Positions 1,040-18,834 are shown, counted from the stretch's first letter. The stretch is DNA of 64,000 bases from Rubripirellula sp. (GCA_965216875.1 OZ244207.1:896001-960000), one strand, 5' to 3'. The notes: generated by a model not told the origin, from the letters alone. A program made the numbers and translations.

Positions 1040-1509
1040 CAGGCTGGTTCGGTGTCACCTTGATATGTCAGATCAACGTCGTGGTACTCAAGTGCCCATT
1101 CGCGCATGAAGCGGACGCGTTGTGGCTCGATGCGGTAGACGATCAGTTCTGGATTGTCGATCGAGACGAGGTATTGGCGAAGCAATGGGTTGTCGTCCCA
1201 AATCGTCTGTAGCAATTGGGAATCCGTTTCGACCTTGGCGATTCCGGTGATCCGAACTTGGTCGTGGGCTTTGCTGAGGTAGCAGAGTTCGACCTTGGGA
1301 TTGGCCTCGATCTCAACGGTTTTGTGATAGGCCCGCAAGTTCGCCACGTAGACAGTGAAGCGGTCGGTACGAACAGGGGAAACCGGACGCACGCGAGGCT
1401 GGTCGCCGTCAACCGAAGCAAGCACAGGAAAACGATCCTCACGAAGGACGTCTAACGCCAGTTGAGGAACATCGGCCGGCGCAATCGGTTTAGGTGTCGG
1501 CTTGGTCAT
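1039..1509 (-). CDS. Pyridoxamine 5'-phosphate oxidase-like FMN-binding split-barrel protein
   Basis: LASVDGDQPRVRPV...K..EIEANPKVEL...QVRITG motifs. Stop overlaps the next start by 1 bp. Confidence 0.85.
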   Translation of the reverse strand: MTKPTPKPIAPADVPQLALDVLREDRFPVLASVDGDQPRVRPVSPVRTDRFTVYVANLRAYHKTVEIEANPKVELCYLSKAHDQVRITGIAKVETDSQLLQTIWDDNPLLRQYLVSIDNPELIVYRIEPQRVRFMREWALEYHDVDLTYQGDTEPA

Positions 1510-1715
1510 GGGGTGATTCTAGCGAAATCCGTCGCCACGATGAGCTATCGGCGCTGTACAAGTGTTTTATTGGCGAGGACGAACGCAGGAGTTTTAGGGG
1601 AATTCGCTTGCTCAATTTAAAGCAACGCGAATGTCTTGAGGTATCCTGGAACCATCCAATTCACAAGTTCGTCCAGCGGCTCTACCTGGGGCCGGTTTCC
1701 GGTGGAGAATTCATC

Positions 1716-2957
1716 ATGCTTTTGCAGCGTGTCAGTAGTTGTTTTGCGCTTCTCTTGGTCGTCACCCTCTCCTCCGCAGAGGCTCAGTGGTACGACCACC
1801 ATCCACCGTACCAGGATCCGGTCTTCAACTTGGATGGCAGCCGACGTACCGCGGTTTACGAGGCTCATTACAGCGCAACATGCGGTTCCTGCGGGACGGG
1901 GCAATGCGGTTGTGGTGTGAGCGACGCATCATTTGATGGGAATGAGGGAGTCGCCGGAGCCAACGGTTCCAGTAGCCGTCTGCAGCCACGGACATGCCCC
2001 CAAACGACGACGGCGCGGTTGCAGGTTTGGGTCGACGACTCGGCTGAGGTGATGGTGAACAAACAGAAAACTCGTCGACAGGTGCTCGGCGGTGTCCACG
2101 CGGGAAGTCGTGTCTACACGTTAACGGGATTGAAGGTGGACGAAGGTTCTTTGACAGAAGTCACGGCCTCGCTTCCCGGAAAGACGCCTGTGACAAAAAC
2201 GGCTTGGGTGCAAGCTGGTGACAAAAAGGCGATACGGTTTACCGCTCAAGAGCTCGTCGCTTTTCAGGAACCAGCTGAGGAGGATATGCTCGATCCCGTC
2301 ACTTACGCGATTGACTTGGCCGAAAAGGCACAAAGAGCCGCCGAGGCTGCAAGGGAAGATGCGGCCAGAGCACAACGTGCGGCCGATGCAGCCAAGGACA
2401 AGGCTCAGAAAGCGATCGATGCCAAGGACGCTCTCGAAAAACGCGTGAAGGCCGCCGAAGCCAAGATCACGAATTACGATAAGCAGATTGCCGCTCTGAA
2501 GGCGAAGTTAAGCCTCGCGCTTCGAACCAATGACGAGACAATCAAAATCAATACTGCAGCTCTCGACGCGGGCGCAACCTATGAGCCTGGCAAGACAGAG
2601 GCCAAGAGTTTTGTGTTCGACACAGGTACTTCGACCACCATTGAGCTGGAAGCGACCAAAGGGGATGGCTTGATGCTAAGCGATGGGGTCGCTGTGCCTG
2701 TTACATTGAAATTCTCCGTCGCACTCGCAGCTGGCGGTACAAAGGAAGTCCTCACCGAGAAAACAATGCTTGTGTTCAACCAGGCAAAAGCGGAGATTTC
2801 GACCAAAGGCTTGGCCAGTGCCATCAAACCAAATTGGTCGCGAGCATTGGGAGATGGAACACTGACCGTCACCATTGAAGGTAAGTTGCCCAATGGAAAA
2901 CCGATTCCAATCACTGGAACGCCAATCACGATCACTGTGAAAGACATCAGCAAGTAA
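1716..2957 (+). CDS. Secreted protein: TIGR03000-like planctomycete domain + coiled coil + C-terminal beta-rich domain
   Basis: ATG 1716 after a GGAG RBS. Signal peptide MLLQRVSSCFALLLVVTLSSAEA, Cys/Gly patch, ARLQVWVDDSAEVMVNKQKT...SRVYTLTGL...TKTAWVQAGDKKAIRF (TIGR03000-like), then Ala/Lys heptads. Confidence 0.7.
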   Translation: MLLQRVSSCFALLLVVTLSSAEAQWYDHHPPYQDPVFNLDGSRRTAVYEAHYSATCGSCGTGQCGCGVSDASFDGNEGVAGANGSSSRLQPRTCPQTTTARLQVWVDDSAEVMVNKQKTRRQVLGGVHAGSRVYTLTGLKVDEGSLTEVTASLPGKTPVTKTAWVQAGDKKAIRFTAQELVAFQEPAEEDMLDPVTYAIDLAEKAQRAAEAAREDAARAQRAADAAKDKAQKAIDAKDALEKRVKAAEAKITNYDKQIAALKAKLSLALRTNDETIKINTAALDAGATYEPGKTEAKSFVFDTGTSTTIELEATKGDGLMLSDGVAVPVTLKFSVALAAGGTKEVLTEKTMLVFNQAKAEISTKGLASAIKPNWSRALGDGTLTVTIEGKLPNGKPIPITGTPITITVKDISK

Positions 2958-2995: not shown

Positions 2996-3196
2996 CTAGA
3001 GCTTGCAGGTGTAGCGGCCGTTGGATCCCATTTCACAAGAGTGAAAGAAGAGGAGGGTGTCCCAGCGGCTCATCGTTCGTTCGCGATCCTCTTCTTCCAT
3101 ATCTGCGACAACTGCCTCGCGCAATTGGAATGGCGTCATGCCTGGGCGGCAACGCTTTTTCATTAGTTTGAGAATTTCTGAGTCAGAGATTGCCAT
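2996..3196 (-). CDS. Small 66-aa hypothetical protein, paralog of 3223-3429
   Basis: MAISDSEILKLMKKRCRPGMTPFQLREAV...RWDTLLFFHSCEMGSNGRYTCKL. About 34/64 identities to its neighbour by manual alignment. GGGG RBS-like sequence upstream. Confidence 0.8.
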   Translation of the reverse strand: MAISDSEILKLMKKRCRPGMTPFQLREAVVADMEEEDRERTMSRWDTLLFFHSCEMGSNGRYTCKL

Positions 3197-3222
3197 CGTA
3201 TTGTCCCCATTTGAATTGCGGC

Positions 3223-3429
3223 TTACGGATCGCAATCGTATTGACCGTTTCCGTCAAGCTCGCATGCATTGAAAAAGAAAAGCAATTCATCCCAGCGTTT
3301 GCGAATGCGGCGTTTCTTTGGCTCGGACATGTACTTTAGTACTGCCTCACGCAACTCAAACGGAGTCATGCCGGTTTCGCACTTGTCGCTCATGCGGGCA
3401 AGGATGTCTTCGTCACTGATCGCTGGCAT
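3223..3429 (-). CDS. Small 68-aa hypothetical protein, paralog of 2996-3196
   Basis: MPAISDEDILARMSDKCETGMTPFELREAV...RWDELLFFFNACELDGNGQYDCDP. Overlaps the upstream lipoprotein ORF by 17 bp. Confidence 0.8.
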   Translation of the reverse strand: MPAISDEDILARMSDKCETGMTPFELREAVLKYMSEPKKRRIRKRWDELLFFFNACELDGNGQYDCDP

Positions 3430-4174
3430 TTTTTTTTCCCACGGACGATTTCGCCGCTTCGTAAACTTCTTTTACTTCGTCGAGCAGGGCAGAGGACGCC
3501 TCGTTATTTTGGCCATCAAGCTCTTGTCGGAACGCGTCCACGGCGGCGTCCAATTCTTCTCCCGTCAGGTCAGCCGACGTTTCAATCGACTCGCGGAGAC
3601 CACGATATTTTTCGAGGATGCTTGACCATTCGCCACGCCTCGAGTCGACAGTTCTCAGCAGTTCGCCCAAATCGGTGACCGGTGGTGGCGCGTTTTCACT
3701 GCGAGCGGTCTCGAGCATCTGAGAGACTTCAGCGACCGTTTCTTGCTCGGCTTCGGTCAGCCACTTGCTGCCTTCCCACTGAAGCACCATCGCCTCGAGT
3801 TTTCGGAACTGGTCGTTTTCGTAGAATTGTTTGCGGAAGACGTCCGATACTTCTGCATCGCCTGGCGCAAGCTTTTTGGACATCATTTCGTTGCGTGCAT
3901 CGTTGAACGCAGTGGAAAGGAGTTCAACATGCTGCTGAATCGATTGAGGCTCAGGGACCTTGGCCATCGCCGTCTCGATCTCAGCGAGCACGGGCGACTC
4001 GGGCAGTTTGATCTCAATCGTTTCCGTCCGATCGGTGACGTTGGACGCGTTGTCGGCTTCCGCCTGTGGCTGAGAGTTAACTGTCGCCTTTGGTGAAGCG
4101 GCTTGGCCACATCCGACGAGAAGAGGCAGCGCGAGAAGTGCTGCGGCTGCGATTGGTTGTGTCGTCTTGAACAT
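3413..4174 (-). CDS. Predicted alpha-helical lipoprotein, unknown function
   Basis: MFKTTQPIAAAALLALPLLVG|C lipobox, low-complexity linker, then an acidic helical body. Confidence 0.8.
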   Translation of the reverse strand: MFKTTQPIAAAALLALPLLVGCGQAASPKATVNSQPQAEADNASNVTDRTETIEIKLPESPVLAEIETAMAKVPEPQSIQQHVELLSTAFNDARNEMMSKKLAPGDAEVSDVFRKQFYENDQFRKLEAMVLQWEGSKWLTEAEQETVAEVSQMLETARSENAPPPVTDLGELLRTVDSRRGEWSSILEKYRGLRESIETSADLTGEELDAAVDAFRQELDGQNNEASSALLDEVKEVYEAAKSSVGKKNASDQ

Positions 4175-4290
4175 TATGGTTCGCCCAATGACTCGTTTGG
4201 TGATCATGGTATACCTCTGCGTTGGAGTCTACCATTCTGGACATCCGTCCACAAACGAGCCCATTGCCCATAACGATCTTCGCACTTTGC

Positions 4291-7200
4291 CTAACGCACG
4301 GGTGGCAATCGTTTTGTGCGCGGGACGCTTGGATGCATCTTTTCGTAGCTGGCGGGTACGACACTTTGCAGAGCGGCGCGACCCTGCGGTTGCACTGCAG
4401 TCGCACGCATCACTTGCGACGAGTGTGTCATAGCGCGCGCGGTCGGACTCGTTGCCTGCGCTGAGGGCCTTATGGCATAAGACCGGTCGACAGACTGGTT
4501 GGTATGCCATTGTTGTCTGCGAACGTTCGACGCTCCTGTGGTTGGCTGTGGAAGGTCCTCGACCTCAAGGGGCGCGTCGTTGATTGGAGCGATATGGACC
4601 GGCGCATGCGGAGGTGCCGGCACCTGTGGCACGATCTGCGAGGGAAGAGATTGCATCGGCTGGATCAGCTCCGGTTCTGTCCTCTCGCTTGGTTGATTCG
4701 GCATTGTGCGCCGCTGGCGATAAGGGGCGGAACGCCCGGGGATGTAGCTTGGACGCACCGCATCTTGAGGGATGGAGGTTTCGCGATTCACTTGTCCCGG
4801 TTGAGCCTGCAAGACACTCGGCGCACCGTATTGAGGTTCGATGATCTCTTCGGAATACATCGGTGCGATTCGTTGCTGCTGAGCCGGGTAATGCCGGTAT
4901 CGCTCGTAGGGAGGTTCCTGCATTTCAGGCGGGCGTCGGTCGAACCGTTCATAGCCATTTCCGGTTGGATCGGGACTGGCGTGCTTGTAGCTATAGCCGC
5001 TTGGGTGATGCGGCGACGCAAGCACTTGCGAGCGGTAGAAATCAGGGCGGTAGGATGACGGGGCCTTGTTTTCTACATCGAGAAAACGATCGACCCTCTC
5101 TGAAGCCACACGGAAGACGTAGTCACGCATCGATTTCTGGCGCCCACGAATCACATGCTCTGACTCGAGCAACGCGGTATGGTCGAGATCAACGACCTGC
5201 TGTGCCCAACGCAATCCCATCAAGTCGAAGAGCGTTGGGTAGAGGTTGGTTTGACCGAAAATGACGTTCTGTTGAAGCGACGATTCGGCACTCGGTGCGG
5301 GACGAAATGCAGCACCGACGATCGGAATGTCTTCCAGAAGTGGCACACCCCGGCTTGTTCTCGATACCTTTAACGCGACCTGGTACCGACTGATTTCACG
5401 CACCTCGAAGTTGCCCGTTTGAACGGCAGTGTGGACGAAGTGACGCTTGATGCGACCAATGTGTTTTTCATTCGCACGAACGGGTTCACGGATGTTCGTT
5501 GTGTACATGTAGTCAAAATCGTAAACACACGAATCGCCATCGGGCTGCATCACTGGTCGAATCTGAAAACCTGTTCCCGTTTCCAATTTGAAGATCGATG
5601 GTTCTGGAACGAGGCTTTGCAGTGCGGAACCAGGTGTTCCTTGACCGGTCGGCGGCGGCGCGTGACCCATGATGTGTTGGTCGAGCGTTTGCGATTGTCC
5701 CGGGACGAGATTCTTGACGACCGACGGATTGGTCCCGCCACCCATCATTTGGAACGCACTCAAGAAGGTTGGGTCGTTGATCAACGCGCCCGTGTCTTCG
5801 ACCAACGCTTTCGCCGCGTCAAACGCTTCTTTGATTGCGATTTGACGTTTCGGGAGGTCAAACTCCATCATCGCCTGAGGGTCGACTTTGGCAAAGTCGC
5901 GGTTGTTGGTCAGGATCGTGGTCCGTTCGACTTGACTCAGGTTGACCGCGCGTCCGCGAGCCGCTTCGCGAACGCGGACGAAGGCGGGGTCATAGAACTG
6001 CACTTTGAAATCGTCTTCGATCGCAATCGACAGCCGCTTCAAGTACTGGTCGATCACCGAAATATGCGATCGAGTACCCTCAACAAGTTCAATGAACTTG
6101 TCTTGCTGTTCGTCAATCAGTAGGTCAAGCAGCTTGCGATGATCCAGGTCGCCACGGGTTTCTTCAAGGAAGTCGTTGACAGTAGAGATCGCAACGCGTG
6201 CTGAGATACTGTCGCGTTTGGCCTTGTAGAGTTGATCCAGCAGGGATTTGACTGTTTCGACGAAATCGGTGGTCTCAAGCGAATTCAAGTACGAAAGGAA
6301 TTCATTGTACGCGTCGTTGAATTGCGAGGTGCCGACGTTTGAGTCTTCAACCAACGCAATGAAACTGTAGTAGCGATCACGTATTCCGATCGCGTCGGGC
6401 GCTCGATTCTTTAGCAACTCAAGTGCTTTGAGTGCATCGGTGATTTTTGGCGCCGCGAATTGTGCGCGTGTCTCTTTCATCGACTCAGCGGTTTTGTTAA
6501 TGAAGTCTCTTTCCTGTTCGGTCATCCATACCGCATTTGTCGAGGCTGCAATCAGGCTTTCCAGTTCGGTGTAGGGGGTATTTGGTGCGTAGAATCCCTT
6601 GCGGAACAGCGATTTGAGTTCTGGTGAATCAATCGTTATTCCCCTATCGCGGATCGCAGCTCGGGCTTGATTGAGTGTTTTTGTTTGCTGCTCTTGGAGT
6701 GCATCAACTTGAGTGTCATCAAAACGGGTGGCGGACTCCGCGTTGTTGAACGCGTCGGCAAGCGCTTGAGCAGCACTCTGGACGACTTTGTTGGCTTCGA
6801 GCTGTGTGAGATAAGTCGCTTCAAGCTCCTGCAACGCCTTTTTGTGGATCCTCTGCATCACCGCAAATTTCGCGTTGTCGTCATTTGACCGTTCTTCGAT
6901 CAACGCTCGCTCCATGACTCGTTGCTTCCATTCCATTTCGGCAACGAGTCTTGCTTTGAAGATCTGGGCAAGGCGAATGAACTCGCGTTGCATAGGATTC
7001 ATAGCGTCGGGGTTGGTGAAGCCGACGTCAAAGAAGCCTCGCAGGTTGCGGAAGTGGTAGCGTTGCTGGGCATTGCGATGGACAGCCTCGCAGACGACCA
7101 GTTCTTTTTTGTAGTTGTTCTTGATCGGAAGATGAGCTCGATTCCACGGCGGGAAGAATTTTTGAGTGCGGTGGGGCTTGAGTTCGCTTGAGCGTCGGAA

Positions 7201-9813
7201 ATCGTATTCCGCATCAGCGAGCTCCGTCTTGGCATCGACGACGAACCGACTGATGATCCGCTGGCGCACGTCATTCTTGGCAAGCGCGAGGATGAACATC
7301 GCTCGGTTGAAGCTGATCGTGTCCATGGCATGCAGGGACAGAAGTTTGTTTTCCGTTTTGAGGAACTCCGAATCCATTGCGAAGAGTTCGTCAATGAAAT
7401 CACGCCCAAAGAAGGCATACAAATAGCGGCGGTCACGGTCGACTTGGTAGTGTCCGTGAAGATCACATTGGGCAGCGATTTCCGCGGCTTCGGTTTGAAT
7501 CGCGCGGCGGAGCAGGTCGAGTGATCGATTGACGAGAAACCGCGAGAGATCGATGTTGCTCTCGGCGTTACCGAGCACCTTTTCCATCTTCTCGCCCTCT
7601 TCGCCGTTGATCTGAACGGTGAAGACACCGATCTTGATTTGGCCGACCGGTGAGTCGATTTGGTTGATCATGGTGCGGATTTTGTTGATGCCCTTGATGG
7701 GGCCGCGCAGCTGGATCAAGCCTTCGCCAATGACCGAGATGGAGCATTGGGTGACCGGGTCGACGGAGTTGAGATCGCCTGGCACATAAGTGTCTGGATC
7801 TGTTTCGGCCGCCGTGACTTCATCGCGAAACTGCCGTTCCTTCGCACGCGTTTCTTTCGCCTGCGCATCGTTCCACTCATCGCGGCGGTCGAGTTCGGCT
7901 TCGCGAAGTGTTGCGACGGATTGCTCGAGCGCCGCGACCTGTTGTTCAAGATTGGCTGTGTCTTCGACGTAATAAGGACTCGCTTGTGCATTGGCGATGC
8001 GAGTTTCGAGGTCCTTCTTTTTCGCAGTGTCCGCTTCGCTTAGATTCCCATCGCTGTCTGCGGGTAGGTTATTGAGTGCGATATTGTCCGATTTGATCGA
8101 AGTGTTCAGCTGCTGGGCGTTGGCCAGCGTTTGCTGGGCTTGAGCGAGACGTTGTTCTTCCGCACGCGTTCGGTCGGCTGCTCGCACGGCAGCACGCTCT
8201 TTCTCTCGTCGCGTGTCAGTCGCCGCATCGGCTTCATCGCGCGAGTTCTCCGCTCGCCGTTCGGCCTGCGTCACGGCGGCTTGGTTGTAGGATCGAATGT
8301 TTCGATTGATGATCTGTGCGACTCGATGGGCATCGCGATAGTAGTAGAGTCGAGCAACGCGTGTTTCTACGTAGTCGCCCGGGTTGAAGCCACTCTTGGG
8401 GATGTCCTGCGGTTTGGGAGGTGCATAGGGTGTGAATTCAACATGCTGGCCGAACTCGCGTTCAGGCAAGATCGAGACATACCATGCTTTTGATGTGCTC
8501 GCCGTGTTGCCGGCGCGGTCCGCAATGTTTGTCGTTGGCGTGATTTCGAATCGACCCGACGGCAGGGTACTGTAGACCAATCGAATGGTTCGGCCGTTGA
8601 CGGTCACATTGGGTTGGGCGGTCACGGTGGTGAATCCGCCTGTTTCTTGATGCTTGACTTCGAACAACGGTGTCCGGTTGGCAAGGTCGGAGGCAAAATC
8701 AGACGACTCGAAAACGAGATTGAGCGCAGGTGAGGTGCCGGTTGAACTTGGGACGGACAGAACTTCCGCCTGAACAATGCGTGGTTCAATCGTATCGAGG
8801 TAAACGCGGATTGGGGCCGTTTGAGCCGAAACCTTGTCGCCAACGCGGAACGCAATACTGACTTGGTTCGTGCCTTCCTTTTCTAGCGTGACGTTGTAGG
8901 CGTTCCCGAGTGTGATTGCGCCTTGCGCGACGCCGTTGACAAAGGGAATCACGTGGGTCGATCCTGTTGGGGATCCGTCGATGTCGAGCGCGATCTGGGG
9001 TTTGCTGCTGAGGTAGTAAGCACCTGCGACATCGGAGAGGCGTTGCACACCAGTCACTTGATCGATCGTGAACGCCACACCGTCGACGGACGTTGACGGT
9101 TCGGTGAATGGGATATTGACCGTTTTTGGGTACGTGATTGCGGTCGCTGCTTTCCCAAAGTCGTCTGTTAGTTTTGCCGTAAGGGCCAGTTCGTAGGCTC
9201 CAGGTGTGACCGCCGCTGGCGCCATACTCGCCGTGGTGTTGTCGGAAGAGAGCGCGAACGTTCCAGTAACAGCGTGAGTGCTGCCGCCGGTGAGTTTTTG
9301 TCGAACGATCAAGCCCTGCGCCAGCGAGCCTGCCTCCGTGTCGGTGTCCTTGAACTTAACAACGAAGGTGTTCTTTTCGCGGTAGAAGTCGACGACCTGG
9401 GGAGCTTGATTGTCGAAGGTGATTTGAAAGGTCCCTTTTGCGGTAGGGGATGCTTCACCTTCGGGTGTGTATTCGATGGAGAGAGACTGTGCGCCTGCGT
9501 CAAGCGGCTGGGAAACCGGCAAATCTTGATCCGTGTTGGTGCTTGTCACAGCGACGGTTTGAGGAGTGGAGTCGCCGATCTGGTATTTCAACGATCCCTT
9601 GTTGAAATTGTCACCGAACTGCAGTTTCAGCGTAGGCGTTTGCGAATTTGTCCGCAGCGCAACACCATCTGCTTTGACTGTTGCGGTTGCCTTTACAGTG
9701 ATCTTTTTCAGGCTGTCATCGGGGCGCCAGAACGCGACACTCTTTGTGGCGGCGAAGGCGGCCAGGCTGAGAGCGAGTCCGAACAGGATGATTTTGTCTG
9801 ACTTCCGTTTCAT
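4291..9813 (-). CDS. Giant (1840 aa) divergent secretin-family outer-membrane protein with N-terminal Ig-like domains and large helical inserts
   Basis: Signal peptide. Secretin motifs in order: ETRVARLYYYRDAHRVAQII; LIQLRGPIKGINKIRTMINQIDSPVGQIKIGVFTVQI; TTILTNNRDFAKV; ETGTGFQIRPVMQPDG; RHFVHTAVQTGN; GVPLLEDIPIVGAAFRP...QQNVIF. Pro/Gln-rich tail. Confidence 0.75.
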   Translation of the reverse strand: MKRKSDKIILFGLALSLAAFAATKSVAFWRPDDSLKKITVKATATVKADGVALRTNSQTPTLKLQFGDNFNKGSLKYQIGDSTPQTVAVTSTNTDQDLPVSQPLDAGAQSLSIEYTPEGEASPTAKGTFQITFDNQAPQVVDFYREKNTFVVKFKDTDTEAGSLAQGLIVRQKLTGGSTHAVTGTFALSSDNTTASMAPAAVTPGAYELALTAKLTDDFGKAATAITYPKTVNIPFTEPSTSVDGVAFTIDQVTGVQRLSDVAGAYYLSSKPQIALDIDGSPTGSTHVIPFVNGVAQGAITLGNAYNVTLEKEGTNQVSIAFRVGDKVSAQTAPIRVYLDTIEPRIVQAEVLSVPSSTGTSPALNLVFESSDFASDLANRTPLFEVKHQETGGFTTVTAQPNVTVNGRTIRLVYSTLPSGRFEITPTTNIADRAGNTASTSKAWYVSILPEREFGQHVEFTPYAPPKPQDIPKSGFNPGDYVETRVARLYYYRDAHRVAQIINRNIRSYNQAAVTQAERRAENSRDEADAATDTRREKERAAVRAADRTRAEEQRLAQAQQTLANAQQLNTSIKSDNIALNNLPADSDGNLSEADTAKKKDLETRIANAQASPYYVEDTANLEQQVAALEQSVATLREAELDRRDEWNDAQAKETRAKERQFRDEVTAAETDPDTYVPGDLNSVDPVTQCSISVIGEGLIQLRGPIKGINKIRTMINQIDSPVGQIKIGVFTVQINGEEGEKMEKVLGNAESNIDLSRFLVNRSLDLLRRAIQTEAAEIAAQCDLHGHYQVDRDRRYLYAFFGRDFIDELFAMDSEFLKTENKLLSLHAMDTISFNRAMFILALAKNDVRQRIISRFVVDAKTELADAEYDFRRSSELKPHRTQKFFPPWNRAHLPIKNNYKKELVVCEAVHRNAQQRYHFRNLRGFFDVGFTNPDAMNPMQREFIRLAQIFKARLVAEMEWKQRVMERALIEERSNDDNAKFAVMQRIHKKALQELEATYLTQLEANKVVQSAAQALADAFNNAESATRFDDTQVDALQEQQTKTLNQARAAIRDRGITIDSPELKSLFRKGFYAPNTPYTELESLIAASTNAVWMTEQERDFINKTAESMKETRAQFAAPKITDALKALELLKNRAPDAIGIRDRYYSFIALVEDSNVGTSQFNDAYNEFLSYLNSLETTDFVETVKSLLDQLYKAKRDSISARVAISTVNDFLEETRGDLDHRKLLDLLIDEQQDKFIELVEGTRSHISVIDQYLKRLSIAIEDDFKVQFYDPAFVRVREAARGRAVNLSQVERTTILTNNRDFAKVDPQAMMEFDLPKRQIAIKEAFDAAKALVEDTGALINDPTFLSAFQMMGGGTNPSVVKNLVPGQSQTLDQHIMGHAPPPTGQGTPGSALQSLVPEPSIFKLETGTGFQIRPVMQPDGDSCVYDFDYMYTTNIREPVRANEKHIGRIKRHFVHTAVQTGNFEVREISRYQVALKVSRTSRGVPLLEDIPIVGAAFRPAPSAESSLQQNVIFGQTNLYPTLFDLMGLRWAQQVVDLDHTALLESEHVIRGRQKSMRDYVFRVASERVDRFLDVENKAPSSYRPDFYRSQVLASPHHPSGYSYKHASPDPTGNGYERFDRRPPEMQEPPYERYRHYPAQQQRIAPMYSEEIIEPQYGAPSVLQAQPGQVNRETSIPQDAVRPSYIPGRSAPYRQRRTMPNQPSERTEPELIQPMQSLPSQIVPQVPAPPHAPVHIAPINDAPLEVEDLPQPTTGASNVRRQQWHTNQSVDRSYAIRPSAQATSPTARAMTHSSQVMRATAVQPQGRAALQSVVPASYEKMHPSVPRTKRLPPVR

Positions 9814-9883
9814 CGTTCAGTTCCTGGTATCCGTCGGTGGACCTGAATGTGTTTTGGGTAGGCACGAATGGCGCCCGAGCGGT

Positions 9884-10687
9884 TTAACGATTGGTGCGGA
9901 CGAAGGGGGTCTCTTGGCGGGCGGCTTTGGTGGCTGCTCGCTCGACCGTTGCTTCGTACTGCGTTTGCGGACCTTGGTCGCGGAGACTCTTGAGGTAAGT
10001 CACTCCGGGGATCAGATTACTGAGCGTCTTGACACTGTCCGATCCCTTCGAAGCCAACTTGCCTGCTCCCGTCTTGATGCCTCCCAAGAAGTCGGCACCG
10101 TCGGCGCAGACTTCTTTCATGGAGTTGATCGCAGTCGATGAGGCGAGTTTTTCGGAAACATGCTCGCGGCAATGTTCCTTTGCATCTCGCACAGCCACAC
10201 CAAAGCCTTTGCCACTATGGTGCTTGACGACTGCGACACAGGGATCAAACGGGAAGCCGCGAAACTTGATCTCGACTCGTTTGTCGCTGTAGATATAGAT
10301 GATCGAATGGGCCGTGTGTTTGACGCGCGGTGCACCGGCTGGTAACACCACGTCGACATACATCCGCTCGTTCGTCTTGGGATGATTGGCAACGACAACG
10401 GTCGGTCCGCCCTGGATGATGGGCGCTTGAAAGACCTTGTCGCCGCTGTAGTAGTAACGGTGGACATGAACCTTGGGCGGGATGTCAATCTTATGCCCCT
10501 GGCCTTGAATATGCTGAAGCTCGACGCCAGGTAATCCGCGCTCATGAACGCCCGGGTCCATGATGACAAGGTCGTTGAGTCCCGCCTCGGATGTGTATTG
10601 GGCGGTCGCCTGATCGGCGCGCATCGCCACCATCACTGCGATGAGCGCAGTGGTACCTAACAAGCCACGTCTGACACGGCGTGCCAT
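9884..10687 (-). CDS. Secreted hypothetical protein (beta-rich core, helical C-terminus)
   Basis: Signal-like MARRVRRGLLGTTALIAVMVAMRADQATA after a GGAG RBS. Core DIPPKVHVHRYYYSGDKVFQAPIIQGGPTVVVANHP. Confidence 0.75.
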   Translation of the reverse strand: MARRVRRGLLGTTALIAVMVAMRADQATAQYTSEAGLNDLVIMDPGVHERGLPGVELQHIQGQGHKIDIPPKVHVHRYYYSGDKVFQAPIIQGGPTVVVANHPKTNERMYVDVVLPAGAPRVKHTAHSIIYIYSDKRVEIKFRGFPFDPCVAVVKHHSGKGFGVAVRDAKEHCREHVSEKLASSTAINSMKEVCADGADFLGGIKTGAGKLASKGSDSVKTLSNLIPGVTYLKSLRDQGPQTQYEATVERAATKAARQETPFVRTNR

Positions 10688-10834
10688 CGATTGCTCTCCC
10701 CGGTTGGATGCGTCCACGCTACCTGCGATGCAGTGATGGACGGAGCAATCGGCCCCAAGATGCTAATGCGGGCAGTGCATTATCAATTGGAATACGCCGA
10801 TTGCGGGATGCCGTAATAATCGTTACATCCCGCT

Positions 10835-11545
10835 TTATCGGTCCTTCTGGTATTCCAGCTCTACCTCGATGTGGGTGATCTTACTGAATTGCACTGATAG
10901 GGGGTGGGCAATCTTCGCTGTGGAGGTGGGGGCGAGCAAGTTCACGGTAGTTGGCCCGCCGCGTGAAACCCAAAACCGGTTCTCGGCTTGCAGCACCATG
11001 TAGGCGTCGGCTGGAAGTCGATTGACTGAATTAGGTGTTGCGATGTCCGCTGAGGTCGTTTGTTCCTCGTCGCCCTCTCTGGGCGGCTGGTTGACCAACG
11101 TCAACTCGGGCGCGGATGCGGAAGTCGGGGCAACATAAAAGCGAAGTTTCACGCCAACGTGTCCGCCGATCAAACCACCGTCACCGCCGTCATGAGTGAA
11201 TCGCCCGGAAGCGAATAGGTTGCCATTCTTGTCGAGCAAGAGGCCAACATGATCGGCAGTGATGGGACCGATGGTGACCGAGTTGGCGCGAAAGTGAAAG
11301 GGTTTGCTCAGCTGTCCCTTGTCCGTTGGGTCGGTTGCGGCAACGGCCAACGTTGTTTGCGAGATCCCGCGGGGCTCGGTGAAAGGCCAAACGTTGTTGC
11401 CGTAGTTGTGGTCGGGTAACAAACATCGAGTCCGCGAGCGGCTTCGCTTGGCAAAGGGCAAGTCGCCAAGAGCAGGCATGCACTCGATGAGCGTCATCAT
11501 TGCAACGATGGCGGCACAAGCCGCAGGAACTGATCGCGCTCGCAT
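10835..11545 (-). CDS. Secreted hypothetical protein, beta-rich
   Basis: Long ORF co-oriented with the cluster. Hydrophobic N-terminus MRARSVPAACAAIVAMMTLI. Start uncertain (11545-11599). Confidence 0.65.
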   Translation of the reverse strand: MRARSVPAACAAIVAMMTLIECMPALGDLPFAKRSRSRTRCLLPDHNYGNNVWPFTEPRGISQTTLAVAATDPTDKGQLSKPFHFRANSVTIGPITADHVGLLLDKNGNLFASGRFTHDGGDGGLIGGHVGVKLRFYVAPTSASAPELTLVNQPPREGDEEQTTSADIATPNSVNRLPADAYMVLQAENRFWVSRGGPTTVNLLAPTSTAKIAHPLSVQFSKITHIEVELEYQKDR

Positions 11546-11719
11546 AGCACCCGTCCTATCAATGGGGTCGTATTGATTTGGCAGCATGCGCAAAACCAAG
11601 TGCGCACAGGGGCAGCTATCGGATTGAACGAGCGGCTAGGGTGACCGTTACGGTGGAGCAAACCGGAACGCTGAGAAAAAGTATGTTGGTCGTAGGGGCG
11701 TTTCCTGAGGTAGTGATTG

Positions 11720-11915: not shown

Positions 11916-13031
11916 CTAACGCATGCCGACTTTGCGATGGAAGAGTTCGGGATCGAACGGGTTGGCAACGCGCGGCAGCCTTGAGGGAGTGTTCGTCGAG
12001 CGTCGCTGTTGGTCCCAAGGATTCTCGATGTCGGCGGTTTCATTGCCGGTGTGATCGTTCGTTGGCTCGTCGTCCGAATGCAATGCGGTCGGAGTTTTGG
12101 GAGACGAAGTGTCAATCGAACCGAAGGCAAGTAGCCAGCGCCGCAGCGTGAAGATCGCCTTTTCGTGTCGCGCGTCCAGTGGCGCTTTCTCGCCACCATG
12201 TGCGGTTGTGGCCTTGATGTAGAACTCGGATTGTTCGACGTTGCCCGGTTCGACAAATCGCAGGGTTGCAAGCAGGTTTTGTTTGGTCATCCGGCCCGAG
12301 GCACGCGTGCCATTGGTGGGCACAATCAAGCTCCAACGCACCTCCTCTTTGCCCAGTTGGTCGTGGCAGCGGGCGCAACGATTGATCAGCGTTGGTTGAA
12401 CATCGGCTGCGAAGGTTTGCAGCGCCAGTGGGCTGACGTTGGGCTCTTGGATTTCGTCCGTTTGAGCTTGAACGCCTGTCGGCTCGGTGTGTCCCACCGG
12501 TCGAATCGTTTGCGGGTCGCTGGTCGGCTTGTCGAACGTGGGGGCGATCAGGCGATTGATGCGCTCGTGCAGTCGCGTTGCTTCTTTGTGTTTGGGGTGG
12601 ATTGCAAGGACGAGTTCGAGTTGATCGTAGGCGAGATCAAAAAGCTCGTAACGGGTACACCATTTTGCGTCTTCAACAAGCTCATCGAGGCTGGCGGTAC
12701 GGCGGTGATCCACTCGGTATTGGTGCAGGTCGCGGAGCGAGTCGGCCCAACAGGCGACTTGGCGCCTTGGCAAGCGGATTTGGTTGCCCGGTCCCTTGCG
12801 AACGACAACGTAGTCGCCTTCCTGGACCGCAGTCCCAAACAAGACATTGTCATTGTGCAGCAGGACGCAGGGTTTCGATTGATCGAATTGCGTCGGGATC
12901 GCGCCCCAATCAATAGCGTCCCCACTAATGTTGCCAGGGGGCGGCGAATGGATCGGAGCTTGCGCAGCAACAGCGTTGGCCAGCAGGATCGCGAGCGCGC
13001 AAACAGCGGTAAGGTGGCGAGAACAACACAT
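11916..13031 (-). CDS. Secreted planctomycete protein with TPR-like segment and a single CxxCH (planctomycete cytochrome c-like) motif
   Basis: Signal peptide. AKWC..YELFDLAY..LE.VL...P.H.EA segment. FAADVQPTLINRCARCH plus a distal AHGG motif. Confidence 0.7.
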   Translation of the reverse strand: MCCSRHLTAVCALAILLANAVAAQAPIHSPPPGNISGDAIDWGAIPTQFDQSKPCVLLHNDNVLFGTAVQEGDYVVVRKGPGNQIRLPRRQVACWADSLRDLHQYRVDHRRTASLDELVEDAKWCTRYELFDLAYDQLELVLAIHPKHKEATRLHERINRLIAPTFDKPTSDPQTIRPVGHTEPTGVQAQTDEIQEPNVSPLALQTFAADVQPTLINRCARCHDQLGKEEVRWSLIVPTNGTRASGRMTKQNLLATLRFVEPGNVEQSEFYIKATTAHGGEKAPLDARHEKAIFTLRRWLLAFGSIDTSSPKTPTALHSDDEPTNDHTGNETADIENPWDQQRRSTNTPSRLPRVANPFDPELFHRKVGMR

Positions 13032-13207: not shown

Positions 13208-13837
13208 TTAGGTGTTTTCGGTAAGACGCGATTCGGTGACCATTCGCACCAGTTCGGCCAAAGAGTGGGTGTTGGTCTTTTCGAAGATTCGTTGCCGCCG
13301 CGATTCGACGGTGCGGATGCTGACGTCAACGCGACGAGCAATCACTTTGTTGGCGACGCCGTCGACCATCAACTCGAGGACTCGCTGTTCATCGGGCGAG
13401 AGCGCGGCGAGGCGTTTCTGGAAGTCGCGTTGTTCGTTCACACGCGAACGGTTGCGACGAGCCTGGGCGTCGGCGGCGAGTGCGTCGCGAATGGCGTCAA
13501 ACAACTCATAGTCGCGGCACGGTTTTTCCAGCACATTGACGGCACCCTTTTTGACCGCTTGGACGGTCAACGGGGTTTCCGCATGGGCGGTAATGATGAT
13601 GACTGGAAGGGTGACACCGTCGTCAACAAGTTTCTTTTGCAGCTCGATACCGCTCATCCCGTGCATGCGCAAGTCGGTGACAAGGCACCCGTGTTGGTTG
13701 GGATCAAACGCGGCCAAAAAGGATTCGGCTGATTCGAAGGTTTCGGCGTGGACGCCCATCGATCGGGTCACCGCTCGCAGTGATTGTCGAGCGCCTTCGT
13801 CGTCATCGACGATGTACACCGTTGCGTTTTCAGACAT
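13208..13837 (-). CDS. FixJ/TtrR-family response regulator (REC + LuxR HTH)
   Basis: VYIVDDD, CLVTDLRMHGMSG, VIIITAH, LEKP, then LSPDEQRVL..MVDG.ANKVIA...DVSIRTVE. Confidence 0.93.
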   Translation of the reverse strand: MSENATVYIVDDDEGARQSLRAVTRSMGVHAETFESAESFLAAFDPNQHGCLVTDLRMHGMSGIELQKKLVDDGVTLPVIIITAHAETPLTVQAVKKGAVNVLEKPCRDYELFDAIRDALAADAQARRNRSRVNEQRDFQKRLAALSPDEQRVLELMVDGVANKVIARRVDVSIRTVESRRQRIFEKTNTHSLAELVRMVTESRLTENT

Positions 13838-13848
13838 TGGTCTACCCC

Positions 13849-16800
13849 TCAAGTGTGCATGGTCGCCTCGCGGCGATATGGCAAAGTAACGTGGAAAGTG
13901 GCCCCGCCCTCATCGTTGACTGATCCCCACAGTCGGCCACCATGGTCTTCGATAATGGTTTGACTGATCGCCAATCCCATTCCCATCCCGCTGGTCTTGG
14001 TCGTGTAAAAGGCTTCAAAAAGTTTTCCGTGTTGATCGACTGGAATGCCTGGTCCGTTGTCTTCGATTTCGAGTTCGACGACGCCGTCGCCGCGGCGGAT
14101 ACGCACTGTCACCCTTCGTGCAACGTCCTGATCGGACAAGGCTTCGTAGGCGTTGTGTAACAGGTTGACCATCACCTGTTCGACCTGCACGCGGTCGGCA
14201 TAAACAGGAGGCAGGTCTTCTTCAAACAGGGTTTCGACTTGGACTTCGAAGCGGCGTGCTTCGAAGGCAACCAGCTCGATCGATTCGCCAACCACTTGAG
14301 CAATGTCGAGTCGATCTCGAGTGCTTTCGCGGCGCTGTGAGAATTCTCGCAACCGCTTGATGATTTCGCTTGCCCGTTTCGACGCCTGCCGCACACCTTG
14401 GTTCCATTCGGCAAGTTCGCCAATGGTGGATGCGTCGATGACGTTGTTTTCGAGATTGTCGAGTGTGACGCTGCTGGCGGTGGCAAAATTGGTGATGGCG
14501 TAGAGAGGTTGCTTCACTTCGTGAGCGATTCCGGCAACCATTTCGCCCATCGTGCTTAGGCGGGTGACATGCGCGAGCAGATCACGGTGTTTGCGGCTCT
14601 CTTCCTCGGCGTCGCGAAGTTCAGTGATGTCGTGCAGCGCGCCATGTAGGCGAACGACCTTGCCATCGATACGTTCGGCGACACCTTGAGCCCGAACCCA
14701 GCGGCGGTTGCCCTTGGCGGTGATCAACGGAAGTTCCAAATCCCAGCACGCGCCCGTCTTGACCGCGGCGTCAACGGCGTCGCTGATGACCGGTCGAGCT
14801 TCGGGGGCGTAAAAGTTGACTGCGGTGTCGAGGTCGGGGCGATAGTCGGGCGACACTTCATGAATGCGACAGGTTTGTGCGGACCAGCTCAGGACGCGCG
14901 TTTCCAGATCGAGTTCCCATCCACCGACACTTGCCAAGCGGTTGGTGACTTCGAGCAGCTCTTCGTTTTTACGCCGCGCATCCTCGGCTCGTTTTTGCGC
15001 CGTGATGACTCGGCCTTCGGGGACGAGCAACGTGACGCGGCCATCGTCGTCGAGGACTGGTTTGATGGAAAAGTCAATCGTTTCGACGCTGTTTGCGCCG
15101 CGCACTTCTTCGGTGTAGCGAACAAATTGTCCGTCGGCTGCTGCCTTGATCGCGTCTTGCAATCGCTGCATTCGTGGTGGGTCATCGCACCACCAAAAGG
15201 TCTCCCAAAAGGGCCGGCCCAAGACATCTTCCGGTTCGACGTTGCCAAATTGAAGTGCCGTTTCATTGGCTTCCAGAAGTCGGCCGTCGATGGTGAGCAG
15301 ACCGATGAACTGGAACGTTGAGTTGAAGATCGCGCGGAAACGCTTTTCACCATCGCGAAGTTTGATCTCGGCGTTGCGGCGTTCGGTGATGTCGGTCGCT
15401 TGAACCAGGATGAAACGCAATTCGCCTGTTTGTTTGCGAATGACCGAGTAGGCGGCCATTGCCACACCGAGTGATCCATCACCGCGCATGTAGGTGTCTT
15501 CTGTCAGCAGCGGTTCATCGGACTTCGGTGCATCAAGGACGCGCTGGCGAATGGTCTCGCGCCATTCCGGGAGTTTTTCCCAGGCCGGTGCGTCCCAAAA
15601 GTACTTTCCGATGTAGTCATCGCGACTGGCATTCTGCATTCGCAGGGGCAGGTCGTTGATTTCCACGACGCGACCGTCGGCATCAAGGATCGCCATGAAT
15701 TGAAACTGTTGATCAAAGGCCAAACGAAAGCGTTCTTCGTTTTCTCGCAGTGCGGTTTCGGCGCGGACTTGATCACTGATGTTGGTTAGGAATGCGAGAA
15801 CGTATTCCTGACCGTTGAATTCGAAATAGCTCGCACTCAGAAGGACGGGGACTTCGGTGTCGTCACCTCGGCGAGCCTTTGTTTGGTAGGTCACCGATTG
15901 GCGGTTCTTGACCTGTTGCCAGAAACTGTCGTTGTATCCGACTCCAAGATCGGCAGCGTTGAGTTCGAGCAGATCAGGCTCGGTGTAGCCAACGAGGTCA
16001 CAGGCAGCCTGATTGACGTAGGCAAATTCTCCTTTGGGCGTGATCCAAAAGATTGCCGTGTGAGAGTTGTCGACAGAATGTTGGGTGATTTGCAGCGCGT
16101 TTTCGAATCGCTTGCGTTCGGTGATGTCAAAGGCCATCGCGAGCACGGCCGACTTGCCTCCGAATTGAATCGGCGTCCCGATCGCTTCGATGTCGGCGAT
16201 TTGCCCGTCATCGCGCAGCAGCCGCATTTCGTTCGGCTCGACCGTTTCGCCGTGATCGGTGATGCGGCGAATCCGATTGGCGACGCGTTCGCGATCGGCT
16301 GGCACAAAGAGGTCGATGATGGATCGGCCCATCATCGATTGCAATTCACACCCGAACAATCGCGTTGCGGCCGGGTTGGCAAACACAATGCGTCCTTCGA
16401 CATGGACGATGATGACGCCAGGGGAAAGTTCGACCACGTTGCGGTACAGCTCTTCGCTCGCTCGCAACGCCTGCTCGACCGACATGCGTTCGAGTTCCGC
16501 AGCGGCACGATCGGCAAAGAGCTGCAGGATTTGTTGTTGGAAGTGGTGGTCGTCCATCGGTTTTCGGTCGATGGCAAACAGAACACCAATCGTGTCGCCC
16601 GACGAATTGATCAAGGGCGCACCGAGGTAGGATTGACCATCGAGCGCGCGAAGGACGTCGTCGGTGGGAAACGTCTTTTGGACGTCCGATGCGTAGAGGC
16701 ATTGCCCTTGCGAGATGACTTGTTCGCAAGGTGTCCCTTCGAGATCGTATTCGAAGTGATCTGCCATTTCGCCGTCGCTGCACACGGCAACCGCGGATGC

Positions 16801-18834
16801 CGTTTTCGGCTTGTTTCGTTCGACCGATGCAATGGCGACATGACGAAAGCCGGTCGCTTGGGCGAGGTGACGAACCAAACTTGCACAGTAGTCTCGGCCG
16901 GTGACACGTGAGGTGCCTTCGACCACCAAGTCCATCGCTTCTCGCGAGCGACGGAATTGACGCTCGGCTTGCACGCGGTCCGTGGCGTCAACGACCAGCA
17001 TGTAAAACCCGACTAGCGATCCCGCATCCGAAACGTGAGGTGCATAGGTGACGTGCCAATGTCGTTGTCCCGAAGGCGTATCGACCGTGGTCTCGAAATC
17101 GACCGTCTCGCCTTCCTGGACGCGTCGAATGTAGGGGACGAGTTCGTGGTAGTGTTCTTCAGTGACCGTTTCGGCAATCGTCTGGCCGTGTGCGTGTGGC
17201 GGCAATGAACTGAGCCCTCGGTGCCACCACGATTTGCAGGTTGCGTTGAGGTAGACGTACCGTTCATCCATGTCGACATAGGCGATCAGGACCGGTAACG
17301 AGTCGGCCATCACCTTCATCTGCTGTTCGCGTTTGCGTAGATTGGCCTCGGTCAGCTTCTTTTCATGGATGTCTTCAGTGATGCCGGTGATCCGTTGAAT
17401 GATTCCAACGTCATCCAAAAGCGGGACGAAGCAGGACCGAAAATGACGATTCGCGGACGTCTTGAACTCGAAAAAACTCGTTTCACCTTCGTAGGCTTGT
17501 TCGAGCAGGTCCGAGACACGCTGACGATCTTCGTCACAGACGGCCGAGAGGTATTTGACGCCGATAACTTCGGACTCGTTGGAAAGCCCGAGCATTTCGA
17601 GGCCGGTTTTGTTCATCGACGAAATCGTGCCATTCAGTTCGATTTCGTGAATGCAAAACGGAGCATTGTTGATCAGTCGTCGATACCGTTCCTCGCTTTC
17701 GGTCAACCGGCGGACGGTTTCTTTTTGCTCGGTGACATCGAGCGCTACGCCGATTGTCCCAATGATCTGTCCTTGGCTGTCGGTCAACGGTTCCATGTGG
17801 GCATGGAACACTCGATCCAACACTTCGTTTTCATACCCGCATGATTCACCACTGAGTGCCCGCAAATGTTGGGCATAGGGCATGTAGTTCGGATCGTCCG
17901 ACTGCAAAAAGTCCGAGACCTTTGTGCCGACCACCTGGTCGGGTTCCAAACCGAGGTCTGCGAGTCCACCACCGGCCGACAGGGTGAATTGCAAGTCGCA
18001 GTTGGTCGTCCAAAGAACTGCGGGGACCTGATCAACGAACATGCGAAGTCGCTCTTCGTTTTGTCGTAGCTCCTCGGCGACCTGTTTCCGTTCGCTGATG
18101 TTGTTGACGAAGGCGAAGACGAACTCTTCACCTTGGTACTCCATCAACGATGTGACGATTTCGACAGGGATCATCCGCCCGTCGAGATGTTGGATTTGTG
18201 TCTCAAAGTTGAGGCGTCTTTGCTGTTGCATCGACGCCCAATATTGTGGCCAAACCTCGGGCGGATAGGACGGGTCAATGTCGTGCACGTTCATCGTCAA
18301 CAACGTTTCACGTGGGTACCCGAATTCACGCGTCGTTTGGTCGTTGACGTAAAAGAAACTTGCGTCTTTGCGAATCCAAAAAACGGAGACGCTGCAACTG
18401 TCGACCGAGAACTTGGTGAATTGCAACTCTTCCTGGTTGCGTTTCTGCTCGGTGATGTCGTCCACAATCGCGATGTGTGTGGTCGGCGCGTCGCCAGGTT
18501 GCCACATTGCCGAGACGGACAAATTGATCCAGCGGTAGGTTCCGTTGCGATGACGCAAGCGTTTTTCGAGACTGAAGGATCGAATCTCGCCCGTCAGCAG
18601 GCGGTTCATTTGTTCCACGTCGGTCTCGAGATCGTCGGGATGGGTCAGGTCCATCCACGTCTTTCCGATCAATTCTTGTTGGGTCGTGTCGAGGATCTCG
18701 CAGTACCGCTGGTTGGCCCTCAGGATCTCGCCGGTGATGGAATCGAGCTGGCCGATTCCGACCGCGGCGTTTTCAAAGATCGCCTGGTACGGAGTGATCT
18801 CATCCGCTCGTTCATCCATCGACGTCGGAATCAA
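13849..18834 (-). CDS. Soluble multi-PAS/GAF sensor histidine kinase (FixL/NtrB-like transmitter)
   Basis: About 10 PAS/PAC repeats ending in D(I/V)TE. GAF with GTPCEQVI. H-box GEMVAGIAHEVKQPL, N-box QVMVNLLHNA, DNGPGI, FYTTKTSGMGMGL. TTG start after AGGAG. No TM segment seen. Confidence 0.93.
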   Translation of the reverse strand: MIPTSMDERADEITPYQAIFENAAVGIGQLDSITGEILRANQRYCEILDTTQQELIGKTWMDLTHPDDLETDVEQMNRLLTGEIRSFSLEKRLRHRNGTYRWINLSVSAMWQPGDAPTTHIAIVDDITEQKRNQEELQFTKFSVDSCSVSVFWIRKDASFFYVNDQTTREFGYPRETLLTMNVHDIDPSYPPEVWPQYWASMQQQRRLNFETQIQHLDGRMIPVEIVTSLMEYQGEEFVFAFVNNISERKQVAEELRQNEERLRMFVDQVPAVLWTTNCDLQFTLSAGGGLADLGLEPDQVVGTKVSDFLQSDDPNYMPYAQHLRALSGESCGYENEVLDRVFHAHMEPLTDSQGQIIGTIGVALDVTEQKETVRRLTESEERYRRLINNAPFCIHEIELNGTISSMNKTGLEMLGLSNESEVIGVKYLSAVCDEDRQRVSDLLEQAYEGETSFFEFKTSANRHFRSCFVPLLDDVGIIQRITGITEDIHEKKLTEANLRKREQQMKVMADSLPVLIAYVDMDERYVYLNATCKSWWHRGLSSLPPHAHGQTIAETVTEEHYHELVPYIRRVQEGETVDFETTVDTPSGQRHWHVTYAPHVSDAGSLVGFYMLVVDATDRVQAERQFRRSREAMDLVVEGTSRVTGRDYCASLVRHLAQATGFRHVAIASVERNKPKTASAVAVCSDGEMADHFEYDLEGTPCEQVISQGQCLYASDVQKTFPTDDVLRALDGQSYLGAPLINSSGDTIGVLFAIDRKPMDDHHFQQQILQLFADRAAAELERMSVEQALRASEELYRNVVELSPGVIIVHVEGRIVFANPAATRLFGCELQSMMGRSIIDLFVPADRERVANRIRRITDHGETVEPNEMRLLRDDGQIADIEAIGTPIQFGGKSAVLAMAFDITERKRFENALQITQHSVDNSHTAIFWITPKGEFAYVNQAACDLVGYTEPDLLELNAADLGVGYNDSFWQQVKNRQSVTYQTKARRGDDTEVPVLLSASYFEFNGQEYVLAFLTNISDQVRAETALRENEERFRLAFDQQFQFMAILDADGRVVEINDLPLRMQNASRDDYIGKYFWDAPAWEKLPEWRETIRQRVLDAPKSDEPLLTEDTYMRGDGSLGVAMAAYSVIRKQTGELRFILVQATDITERRNAEIKLRDGEKRFRAIFNSTFQFIGLLTIDGRLLEANETALQFGNVEPEDVLGRPFWETFWWCDDPPRMQRLQDAIKAAADGQFVRYTEEVRGANSVETIDFSIKPVLDDDGRVTLLVPEGRVITAQKRAEDARRKNEELLEVTNRLASVGGWELDLETRVLSWSAQTCRIHEVSPDYRPDLDTAVNFYAPEARPVISDAVDAAVKTGACWDLELPLITAKGNRRWVRAQGVAERIDGKVVRLHGALHDITELRDAEEESRKHRDLLAHVTRLSTMGEMVAGIAHEVKQPLYAITNFATASSVTLDNLENNVIDASTIGELAEWNQGVRQASKRASEIIKRLREFSQRRESTRDRLDIAQVVGESIELVAFEARRFEVQVETLFEEDLPPVYADRVQVEQVMVNLLHNAYEALSDQDVARRVTVRIRRGDGVVELEIEDNGPGIPVDQHGKLFEAFYTTKTSGMGMGLAISQTIIEDHGGRLWGSVNDEGGATFHVTLPYRREATMHT

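Follow-up and report, generated by a model that had tools for sequence, protein, structure and literature searches.

What does a giant secretin-like protein do at a locus that holds no secretion motor? Secretins are the outer-membrane parts of motor-driven machines, namely those of type II and type III secretion systems (T2SS and T3SS), type IV pili (T4P), Tad pili and filamentous phage. The question is raised by a stretch of 64,000 nucleotides from Rubripirellula sp. (GCA_965216875.1 OZ244207.1:896001-960000; G000:C1 in our numbering), called the window hereafter, from a genome that consists of a single 8.26-Mb contig. Within it a secretin-like protein of 1840 amino acids (aa), here named S, is encoded in a run of six genes, all of which a sequence-only reading of the window had taken to be parts of one self-contained machine. 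We find that S is a distant secretin relative and that its association with two of the five other genes, A and B, is conserved. In the reading we prefer, to which we give an even chance, A, B and S are a conserved planctomycete module in which S likely forms a secretin-type outer-membrane ring and A and B are its dedicated partners.

The six genes, in the order of their transcription, are as follows; the signal-peptide-like N-termini of A, B and S were judged by eye.

Gene A, 10835-11545 (-): 236 aa, from ATG at 11545; the longest open reading frame (ORF) is 10835-11599, from TTG at 11599
Gene B, 9884-10687 (-): 267 aa, from ATG at 10687; the longest ORF is 9884-10717
Gene S, 4291-9813 (-): 1840 aa (P0001), giant, secretin-like and predicted to be exported
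Lipoprotein L264, 3413-4207 (-): 264 aa, with the lipobox LLVGC in the translation
p68, 3223-3429 (-): small paralog of 68 aa
p79, 2996-3235 (-): small paralog of 79 aa

The ORF listing places all six on the minus strand, co-oriented as the sequence-only reading had them. Gene coordinates give intergenic gaps of 147, 70 and 83 bp between A, B, S and the lipoprotein gene, followed by overlaps of 17 and 13 bp among the lipoprotein gene, p68 and p79, the last gene being preceded by a 26-bp gap if an inner ATG is used.

S is a distant relative of the secretins

The relationship is visible both in profile comparison and in predicted structure. When an alignment of the C-terminal part of S and its relatives was compared with eight canonical secretins that this genome encodes (L081-L088), hhalign returned a match of 88.9% (E 2.4e-6, 107 columns) spanning the stretch 'ETGTGFEIRPVIQPDG ... 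GVPLLEDIP.vG.LFRP'. Across the family (C-terminal alignment, 53 sequences), 51 of 53 members match PF00263 at E <= 0.1, below Pfam's cut-off and at best with E 1.2e-5. Secretin hallmark positions within the S family (G1489, V1490, P1497, G1500, F1503, and P1505) are near-invariant, and S shares with T2SS secretins the motif ..GVPxL.diPxxGxLF.., which is conserved in the family alignment. An AlphaFold2 (AF2) model of S 1215-1640, searched against the PDB with Foldseek, matched secretins only among the 25 matches listed down to rank 34. These comprised ExeD (6i1x, E 6e-4, the best), PulD, EpsD, GspD, InvG, PilQ (with 6w6m and 6ve2 matched by structure) and RcpA, with the T2SS secretins GspD/PulD/ExeD/EpsD (6i1x, 6hcg, 6i1y, 5wq7) matching best (E 6e-4 to 2e-3). 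In a VIA-align search of 48,161 representative chains, the top 12 matches were likewise secretins (Z 8.0-6.4), covering model residues ~75-320, which correspond to S 1289-1534. The phage secretin pIV came first (7ofh; Z 8.0, rmsd 5.0, 117 aligned), followed by XcpQ, InvG, ExeD, PulD, GspD, RcpA, PilQ and BfpB, and the longest match was to the Tad secretin RcpA with its pilotin TadD (8odn; Z 7.6, 146 aligned). Like pIV and RcpA, which are compact secretins, S has a short beta part. Judged from the model, a secretin fold for S 1289-1534 is well supported.

Several results weigh against reading S as a secretin. The protein misses Pfam's own gathering cut-off for PF00263 (27.5 bits), scoring 15.6 bits as a whole (E 0.012, over the 23 residues 1483-1505) and 17.6 bits for S 1215-1640, where only profile positions 127-149 are matched. 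In a PF00263 scan of its own genome at E <= 0.001 it is not among the matches. The AF2 model is only moderately confident (predicted local distance difference test, pLDDT, 62.5; predicted template modeling score, pTM, 0.40). VIA-align superpositions extend over 117-146 residues at a root-mean-square deviation (rmsd) of 5.0-8.0 Å, and Z scores of 8 or less may reflect a common arrangement. Sequence-profile searches of the PDB found no secretin: whole S returned coiled-coil and helical proteins only, and the C-terminal profile nothing meaningful. The single S sequence had no match among PDB sequences (phmmer), and when shorter proteins carrying the S C-terminal domain were sought by profile, the search recovered for the most part pieces of S-family members, with nothing that would link them to canonical secretins. 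The earlier description of S as secretin-like therefore stands at the level of the fold (hhalign, Foldseek, VIA-align), while the hit to PF00263 exists only under the cut-off.

Architecture of S and a proposed split barrel

At E <= 0.001 we recovered 358 relatives of S. Among the 120 listed almost all are annotated as 'hypothetical', and the named taxa are Stieleria, Blastopirellula, Tautonia, and other Planctomycetota only. Species-representative genomes contain 133 loci that encode an S relative; as far as we searched, the family occurs in Planctomycetota only, and a full-text literature search returned no description of it. When 30 relatives are aligned, three cores stand out as conserved (about 475-560, 650-970, and 1220-1630), separated and flanked by variable sequence (1-470, 970-1220 and the tail). 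S itself is a single-copy gene in its own genome, and it can be divided as follows.

S 1-454, 8452-9813 (-): N-terminus resembling a signal peptide, followed by beta-rich sequence that differs from relative to relative (no consensus in the 30-relative alignment)
S 455-740, 7594-8451 (-): conserved segment 478-515, a long charged helical/coiled-coil stretch, and a putative junction of N-domain end and barrel start at ~690-740 (..INQIDSPVGQIKIGVFTVQING)
S 741-975, 6889-7593 (-): the family's most conserved helical module
S 976-1214, 6172-6888 (-): variable helical module (no consensus in the 30-relative alignment)
S 1215-1534, 5212-6171 (-): conserved helices 1215-1288, then a secretin-like beta domain at ~1289-1534 with the motif ..GVPLLEDIPIVGAAFRP..
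S 1535-1840, 4294-5211 (-): conserved post-barrel helices to ~1640, then a Pro/Gln-rich variable tail

The conserved helical module has a mean column identity of 42% and 23 invariant columns in the module alignment, with no PDB match at E <= 0.1 and no consistent Pfam match among 53 members. For the variable module the S profile gave only coiled-coil or helical-bundle matches in the PDB; the GC content of the window falls to 0.499 at 6001-7000, against 0.53-0.59 around it, a dip that coincides with this module. The post-barrel part, which contains the conserved columns D1575, R1589, H1603, P1604, G1606, and D1615, has its helices at residues 331-379 of the AF2 model.

A reduced form of the protein, here termed mini-S (750-860 aa), is found in other genomes of the same family, among others at these three loci:

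mini-S, L089:9221-11791 (-)
mini-S, L090:7908-10481 (+)
mini-S, L091:1033-3288 (-)

Of the parts of long S, these proteins retain three, namely the junction, the conserved module of helices and the beta domain that resembles secretins (hidden Markov model, HMM, matches with E 1e-41 to 3e-60); the variable region at the N-terminus, the coiled-coil stretch, the variable module of helices and the tail are missing. Their match to PF00263 extends over profile positions 50-163 of 169 (E 2e-4). Since the conserved helical module is present in mini-S, it is intrinsic to the core of the S family.

The position of that module bears on the layout of the barrel. S 669-754 aligns with the N-domain end and first barrel strand of the eight own-genome secretins (hhalign 52%, E 1.5e-4, 68 columns), where canonical secretins have the pattern '..i.v.G......i..lI.qLD.P..QV.I.a.i..v'; the 'LD.P..QV.I' junction of T2SS secretins is thus aligned, weakly, with S, and a weak match to TIGR02515 (PilQ) falls in the same place (S 708-738, E 0.017). 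If this junction match is real, approximately 550 residues lie inside the secretin domain, and we infer a barrel domain that would be split by the helical modules of S 741-1288. The weakness of the junction match (52%) counts against such an arrangement, as do the failure of S 455-524 alone to match own-genome secretins by hhalign and the absence of any match to PF03958 (Secretin_N) in 53 S-family members. A second split, in an N-type domain of S, is an idea formed by eye. S differs from the T2SS secretins not only in staying under the PF00263 cut-off and in giving no match to the N-domain family PF03958, but also in the ~550 residues predicted inside its barrel, a variable N-terminal region of ~450 residues and a Pro-rich tail of 200-300 residues.

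These additions could also mean that S conducts nothing. A secretin-like ring might serve only as the anchor or scaffold of a surface or periplasmic structure whose exposed parts would be the Ig (immunoglobulin)-like N-terminal region and the variable helical module, and in which A and B would be further building blocks. Consistent with this, residues 1-454 and 976-1214 are strongly variable between relatives, some of which carry Ig-like Pfam domains (PF13205, PF17957, PF19077, or PF17936, on 4 of the 120 listed; S 1-454 of this genome has no Pfam match), and S has its long Pro-rich tail and a ~550-residue helical insert where canonical secretins have a compact barrel. The near-invariant hallmark secretin motifs, however, suggest that barrel function has been kept, and searches of S with Pfam and NCBIfam brought up no family of adhesins, S-layer proteins, or anchors. 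We regard a non-conducting S as improbable.

A, B, and S form a conserved unit

Which of the five neighbors belong with S was addressed by a survey of 80 related loci together with the window, in which ORFs were clustered and the loci were then searched in six frames with family HMMs. At 42 loci at least 2.5 kb of sequence is available on both sides of S. B adjoins S in 41 of these 42 loci, an A-family gene does so in 38, and both do in 37. Two gene orders occur. The order A-B-S is found in the window, in Stieleria, in Blastopirellula, and in others, while the second order is c3-S-A-B, in which c3, a third exported family, precedes S (23/42 loci, second order only; e.g., L025:8073-9095, L032:3372-5267, and L035:4908-7616). 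The N-terminus of c3 is variable, in some cases Ig-like or coiled-coil, and is followed by a conserved C-terminal domain of ~130 aa. By profile comparison (hhalign 58%) this C-terminal domain may be distantly A-like. The form of A that lies upstream of S (c4) and the form that lies downstream (c2) are homologous (hhalign 99.2%, E 7e-20). Homologous loci are present in Blastopirellula marina DSM 3645 (L009) and in Stieleria species (L001 and L011).

Conserved synteny thus upholds A, B and S as members of the proposed six-gene unit and removes the lipoprotein, p68 and p79, which tblastn found at 1, 0, and 0 of the 80 loci; only for the first three does the arrangement exceed chance.

Presence of B follows that of long S closely. 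In a sample of 200 genomes from the same family, the S C-terminal profile was found in 25 genomes (19 of 96 genera), comprising 19 with the long form and six with mini-S. B was found in 21 of the 200: in all 19 genomes with long S, in none of the six with mini-S, and in two of the 175 without an S match, both of which are fragmented assemblies (650-670 contigs). The neighbors of mini-S are unrelated housekeeping or PSCyt/DUF1501-type genes, with no A, B, or c3 nearby. In a phylum-wide sample S was found in seven of 400 genomes, one of them marginal. This patchiness (25/200 in the family, 7/400 in the phylum) counts against the reading we prefer. A-B-S is an accessory module and not a core component of the envelope.

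A and B as candidate partners of S

Neither A nor B resembles a protein of known family. At E <= 0.01 none of 45 members of the A family matched Pfam, nor did any of 52 members of the B family; NCBIfam gave no match for either, and profile searches of the PDB nothing meaningful. In the ESM Atlas, B led only to unnamed Planctomycetota clusters and A to scores under 0.8. In A, the signal segment is followed by the conserved motif Cys-x-x-P-x-x-x-Y, and the C-terminal strand (..ITHLEVELEY..DR) is conserved as well. B, a single-copy gene in its own genome, is predicted to be exported or membrane-anchored and ends in a conserved ..PTNR. Its AF2 model, which is confident (pLDDT 81.8), starts with a hydrophobic helix at the N-terminus, which is followed by a conserved beta-sandwich (~40-158) and by a hairpin of helices (162-259). 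Foldseek found no fold match for this model in the PDB (best E 0.38) or in BFVD (best E 0.12), and with VIA-align the best match (Z 5.1) involved helix only, the beta domain having been barely probed since helices filled the list.

One related locus carries a natural A-B fusion, a single ORF of 540 aa (L036:15110-16732, +). Another (L067:14592-15647) likewise has A- and B-family sequences within a single open frame. A search for fusions of B in the range of 665-2000 aa found none, which is weak evidence. Complex prediction with S 1215-1640 and B 30-267 scored 0.00 and gives no verdict for or against binding. From the strong conservation of the B beta domain, the C-terminal motifs of both proteins, and the natural A-B fusion we infer that A and B are probably structural or gating partners and not cargo.

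In the reading we prefer, S would oligomerise in the outer membrane like other secretins, and the exported A and B proteins would act on the S ring as its dedicated partners. PilQ offers a parallel, in that it is likewise a secretin that depends on dedicated non-motor partners (TsaP, PilP, PilF), encoded beside it or elsewhere; unlike those accessories, A and B resemble no known accessory protein (by Pfam, and for B also by structure search).

Secretion motors

The absence of any ATPase, platform, or pilin gene from the 64 kb, on which the idea of a self-contained machine was built, is confirmed: the window has no match to PF00437, PF00482, or PF07963, and the nearest ATPase match (PF00437) lies ~105 kb from it. 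Related loci present a similar picture. With own-genome T2SS-type ATPases (13), platform proteins (10), and canonical secretins (8) as tblastn queries, a canonical ATPase or secretin was found within the fetched flanks of S at one of 80 loci (L006, which has both, 3.7 kb from S). Homologs of S are therefore not consistently embedded in canonical T2SS, T4P, or Tad loci, and gsp-type genes lie close to S at that one locus only. In the same vein, pIV uses a phage assembly ATPase and RcpA uses the Tad motor together with a tetratricopeptide repeat (TPR) lipoprotein pilotin, and S has neither nearby.

Absence from the window says little, however, since secretins are mostly unlinked to motors in this genome. 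It contains 12 PF00263, 16 PF00437, 21 PF00482, and 64 PF07963 (prepilin-motif) matches, and only three of the 12 secretin matches are within 20 kb of an ATPase match; for the other nine the distance to any ATPase match exceeds 20 kb, and about ten ATPase loci are themselves without a secretin at that range. These figures weigh against a motor-less S and favor an alternative in which S is the outer-membrane pore of a T4P-, T2SS-, or Tad-like machine whose ATPase, platform, and pilins are encoded elsewhere in the genome, with A and B as secretin-side accessories in a role like that of PilP, GspC, or TsaP or of pilotins. In such a genome unlinked secretins are the rule, and the ATPase and canonical secretin beside S at L006 fit the same scheme. 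Set against it are the 79 of 80 related loci without such a neighbor, the lack of resemblance of A and B to any Pfam family, T2SS and T4P accessory families included, and the flanks of the A-B-S module, which vary from locus to locus. Nor has a co-occurring motor been identified, though no co-occurrence search was made. We consider an unlinked motor unlikely on balance, but a serious competitor. The S module may, but need not, be independent of any motor and in this sense 'self-contained'.

The lipoprotein and the small paralogs

L264 appears to be tied to S by descent rather than by conserved neighborhood. Its residues 101-261 align with S 1047-1208, a part of the variable helical module (37/166 identical, 51% positives, E 5e-11 by BLASTP), and this segment (6190-6675 in the window) is the sole non-self match of L264 in the 8.26-Mb genome (tblastn E 1.9e-7). 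The lipoprotein also matches the same helical module in the S protein of locus L005 (E 8e-17). The single tblastn match of L264 among the 80 loci falls inside another S gene. Judged by these alignments, L264 is a putative free-standing, lipid-anchored copy of the S variable helical module, specific to this lineage, and it may join the same assembly there. The suggestion that it acts as a pilotin found no support in the comparison of loci: the lipobox is present, but no counterpart was found beside S at the 80 loci.

p68 and p79 are related to each other (34/64 identical, 53%, E 7e-24); tblastn found neither at any of the 80 loci and no further copies in their own genome, and no signal peptide is apparent by eye. 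An ORF downstream of S at L005 (7171-7731, +) resembles p79 faintly (31% over 73 aa; E 0.027, the database being small). On sequence similarity, the p68/p79 family may extend to the nearest relatives.

The original proposal, in which a single self-contained machine is encoded by all six co-oriented genes, the lipoprotein being its pilotin and the small paralogs further components, can draw on the co-orientation, on the short gaps or overlaps, and on the lipobox and S-module paralogy of the lipoprotein, which make a link to S plausible in this lineage. It is opposed by the 80-locus survey, in which the lipoprotein, p68, and p79 were found beside S one time (inside another S), never, and never, by the genes 3' of S in close relatives, which are unrelated and differ among themselves, and by the apparent lack of signal peptides in the small paralogs. 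A six-gene machine is, in our judgment, very improbable.

Flanking genes

Downstream, the six genes converge on one further gene that the sequence-only reading had regarded as TIGR03000-like and possibly associated:

Convergent gene, 1494-2957 (+): 487 aa, with an Ala/Lys/Glu-rich coiled-coil middle

The TIGR03000 assignment found no support, as NCBIfam gave no such match at E <= 0.1. Only weak matches of coiled-coil type were obtained (PHROG major head, E 5e-5, over the coiled coil), and relatives of the gene occur near S at four of 80 loci by tblastn, or at 4-6 of 80 overall, in close kin only.

Upstream of A lies the gene of an exported protein of 371 aa (11916-13031, -) that carries the CxxCH-like motif CARCH, has no match in Pfam or NCBIfam and is found at none of the 80 related loci. 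Farther upstream on this strand (13208-18834, -), a histidine kinase of 1661 aa that has eight or more PAS folds plus a GAF domain is followed by a 214-aa response regulator; the pair is not conserved next to S in relatives. A scan for promoters and terminators was uninformative, with counts at or below shuffle expectation, and none of the six proteins had a match in PHROGs or PADLOC.

Significance for planctomycete envelopes

A bolder form of the preferred reading, which we hold to be rather unlikely, would make A-B-S a previously unrecognised, motor-less secretin machine. Its helically interrupted barrel would be a capped or caged outer-membrane pore or an envelope-spanning stud, with A and B contributing new folds as gate, dock, or exported fibre subunits, and the whole would be an accessory organelle in a minority of planctomycetes that could underlie a surface structure seen by electron microscopy. 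One such structure was considered as a candidate, with S as the ring of the planctomycetal crateriform structures. In the relevant passages of the sources cited here, these are presented as a hallmark of planctomycetes (Boedeker 2017, PMC5394234) and treated as uncharacterised, with no protein named (Boedeker 2017, PMC5394234; 2025 review, PMC12673574). We gave this candidate less weight given the patchy distribution of S in both the family and the phylum samples, which makes S unlikely to be a universal component.

The S family keeps a secretin core, adds more than 1,000 residues of new modules to it, and travels with two exported proteins. Should A-B-S work alone, a secretin would here be put to a new kind of use; should it depend on an unlinked motor, A and B would constitute a new accessory set. 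Large surface complexes are a feature of planctomycete envelopes, and A-B-S is a concrete candidate for a lineage-specific structure of this kind, in cultured carriers such as Blastopirellula marina DSM 3645 and Stieleria.

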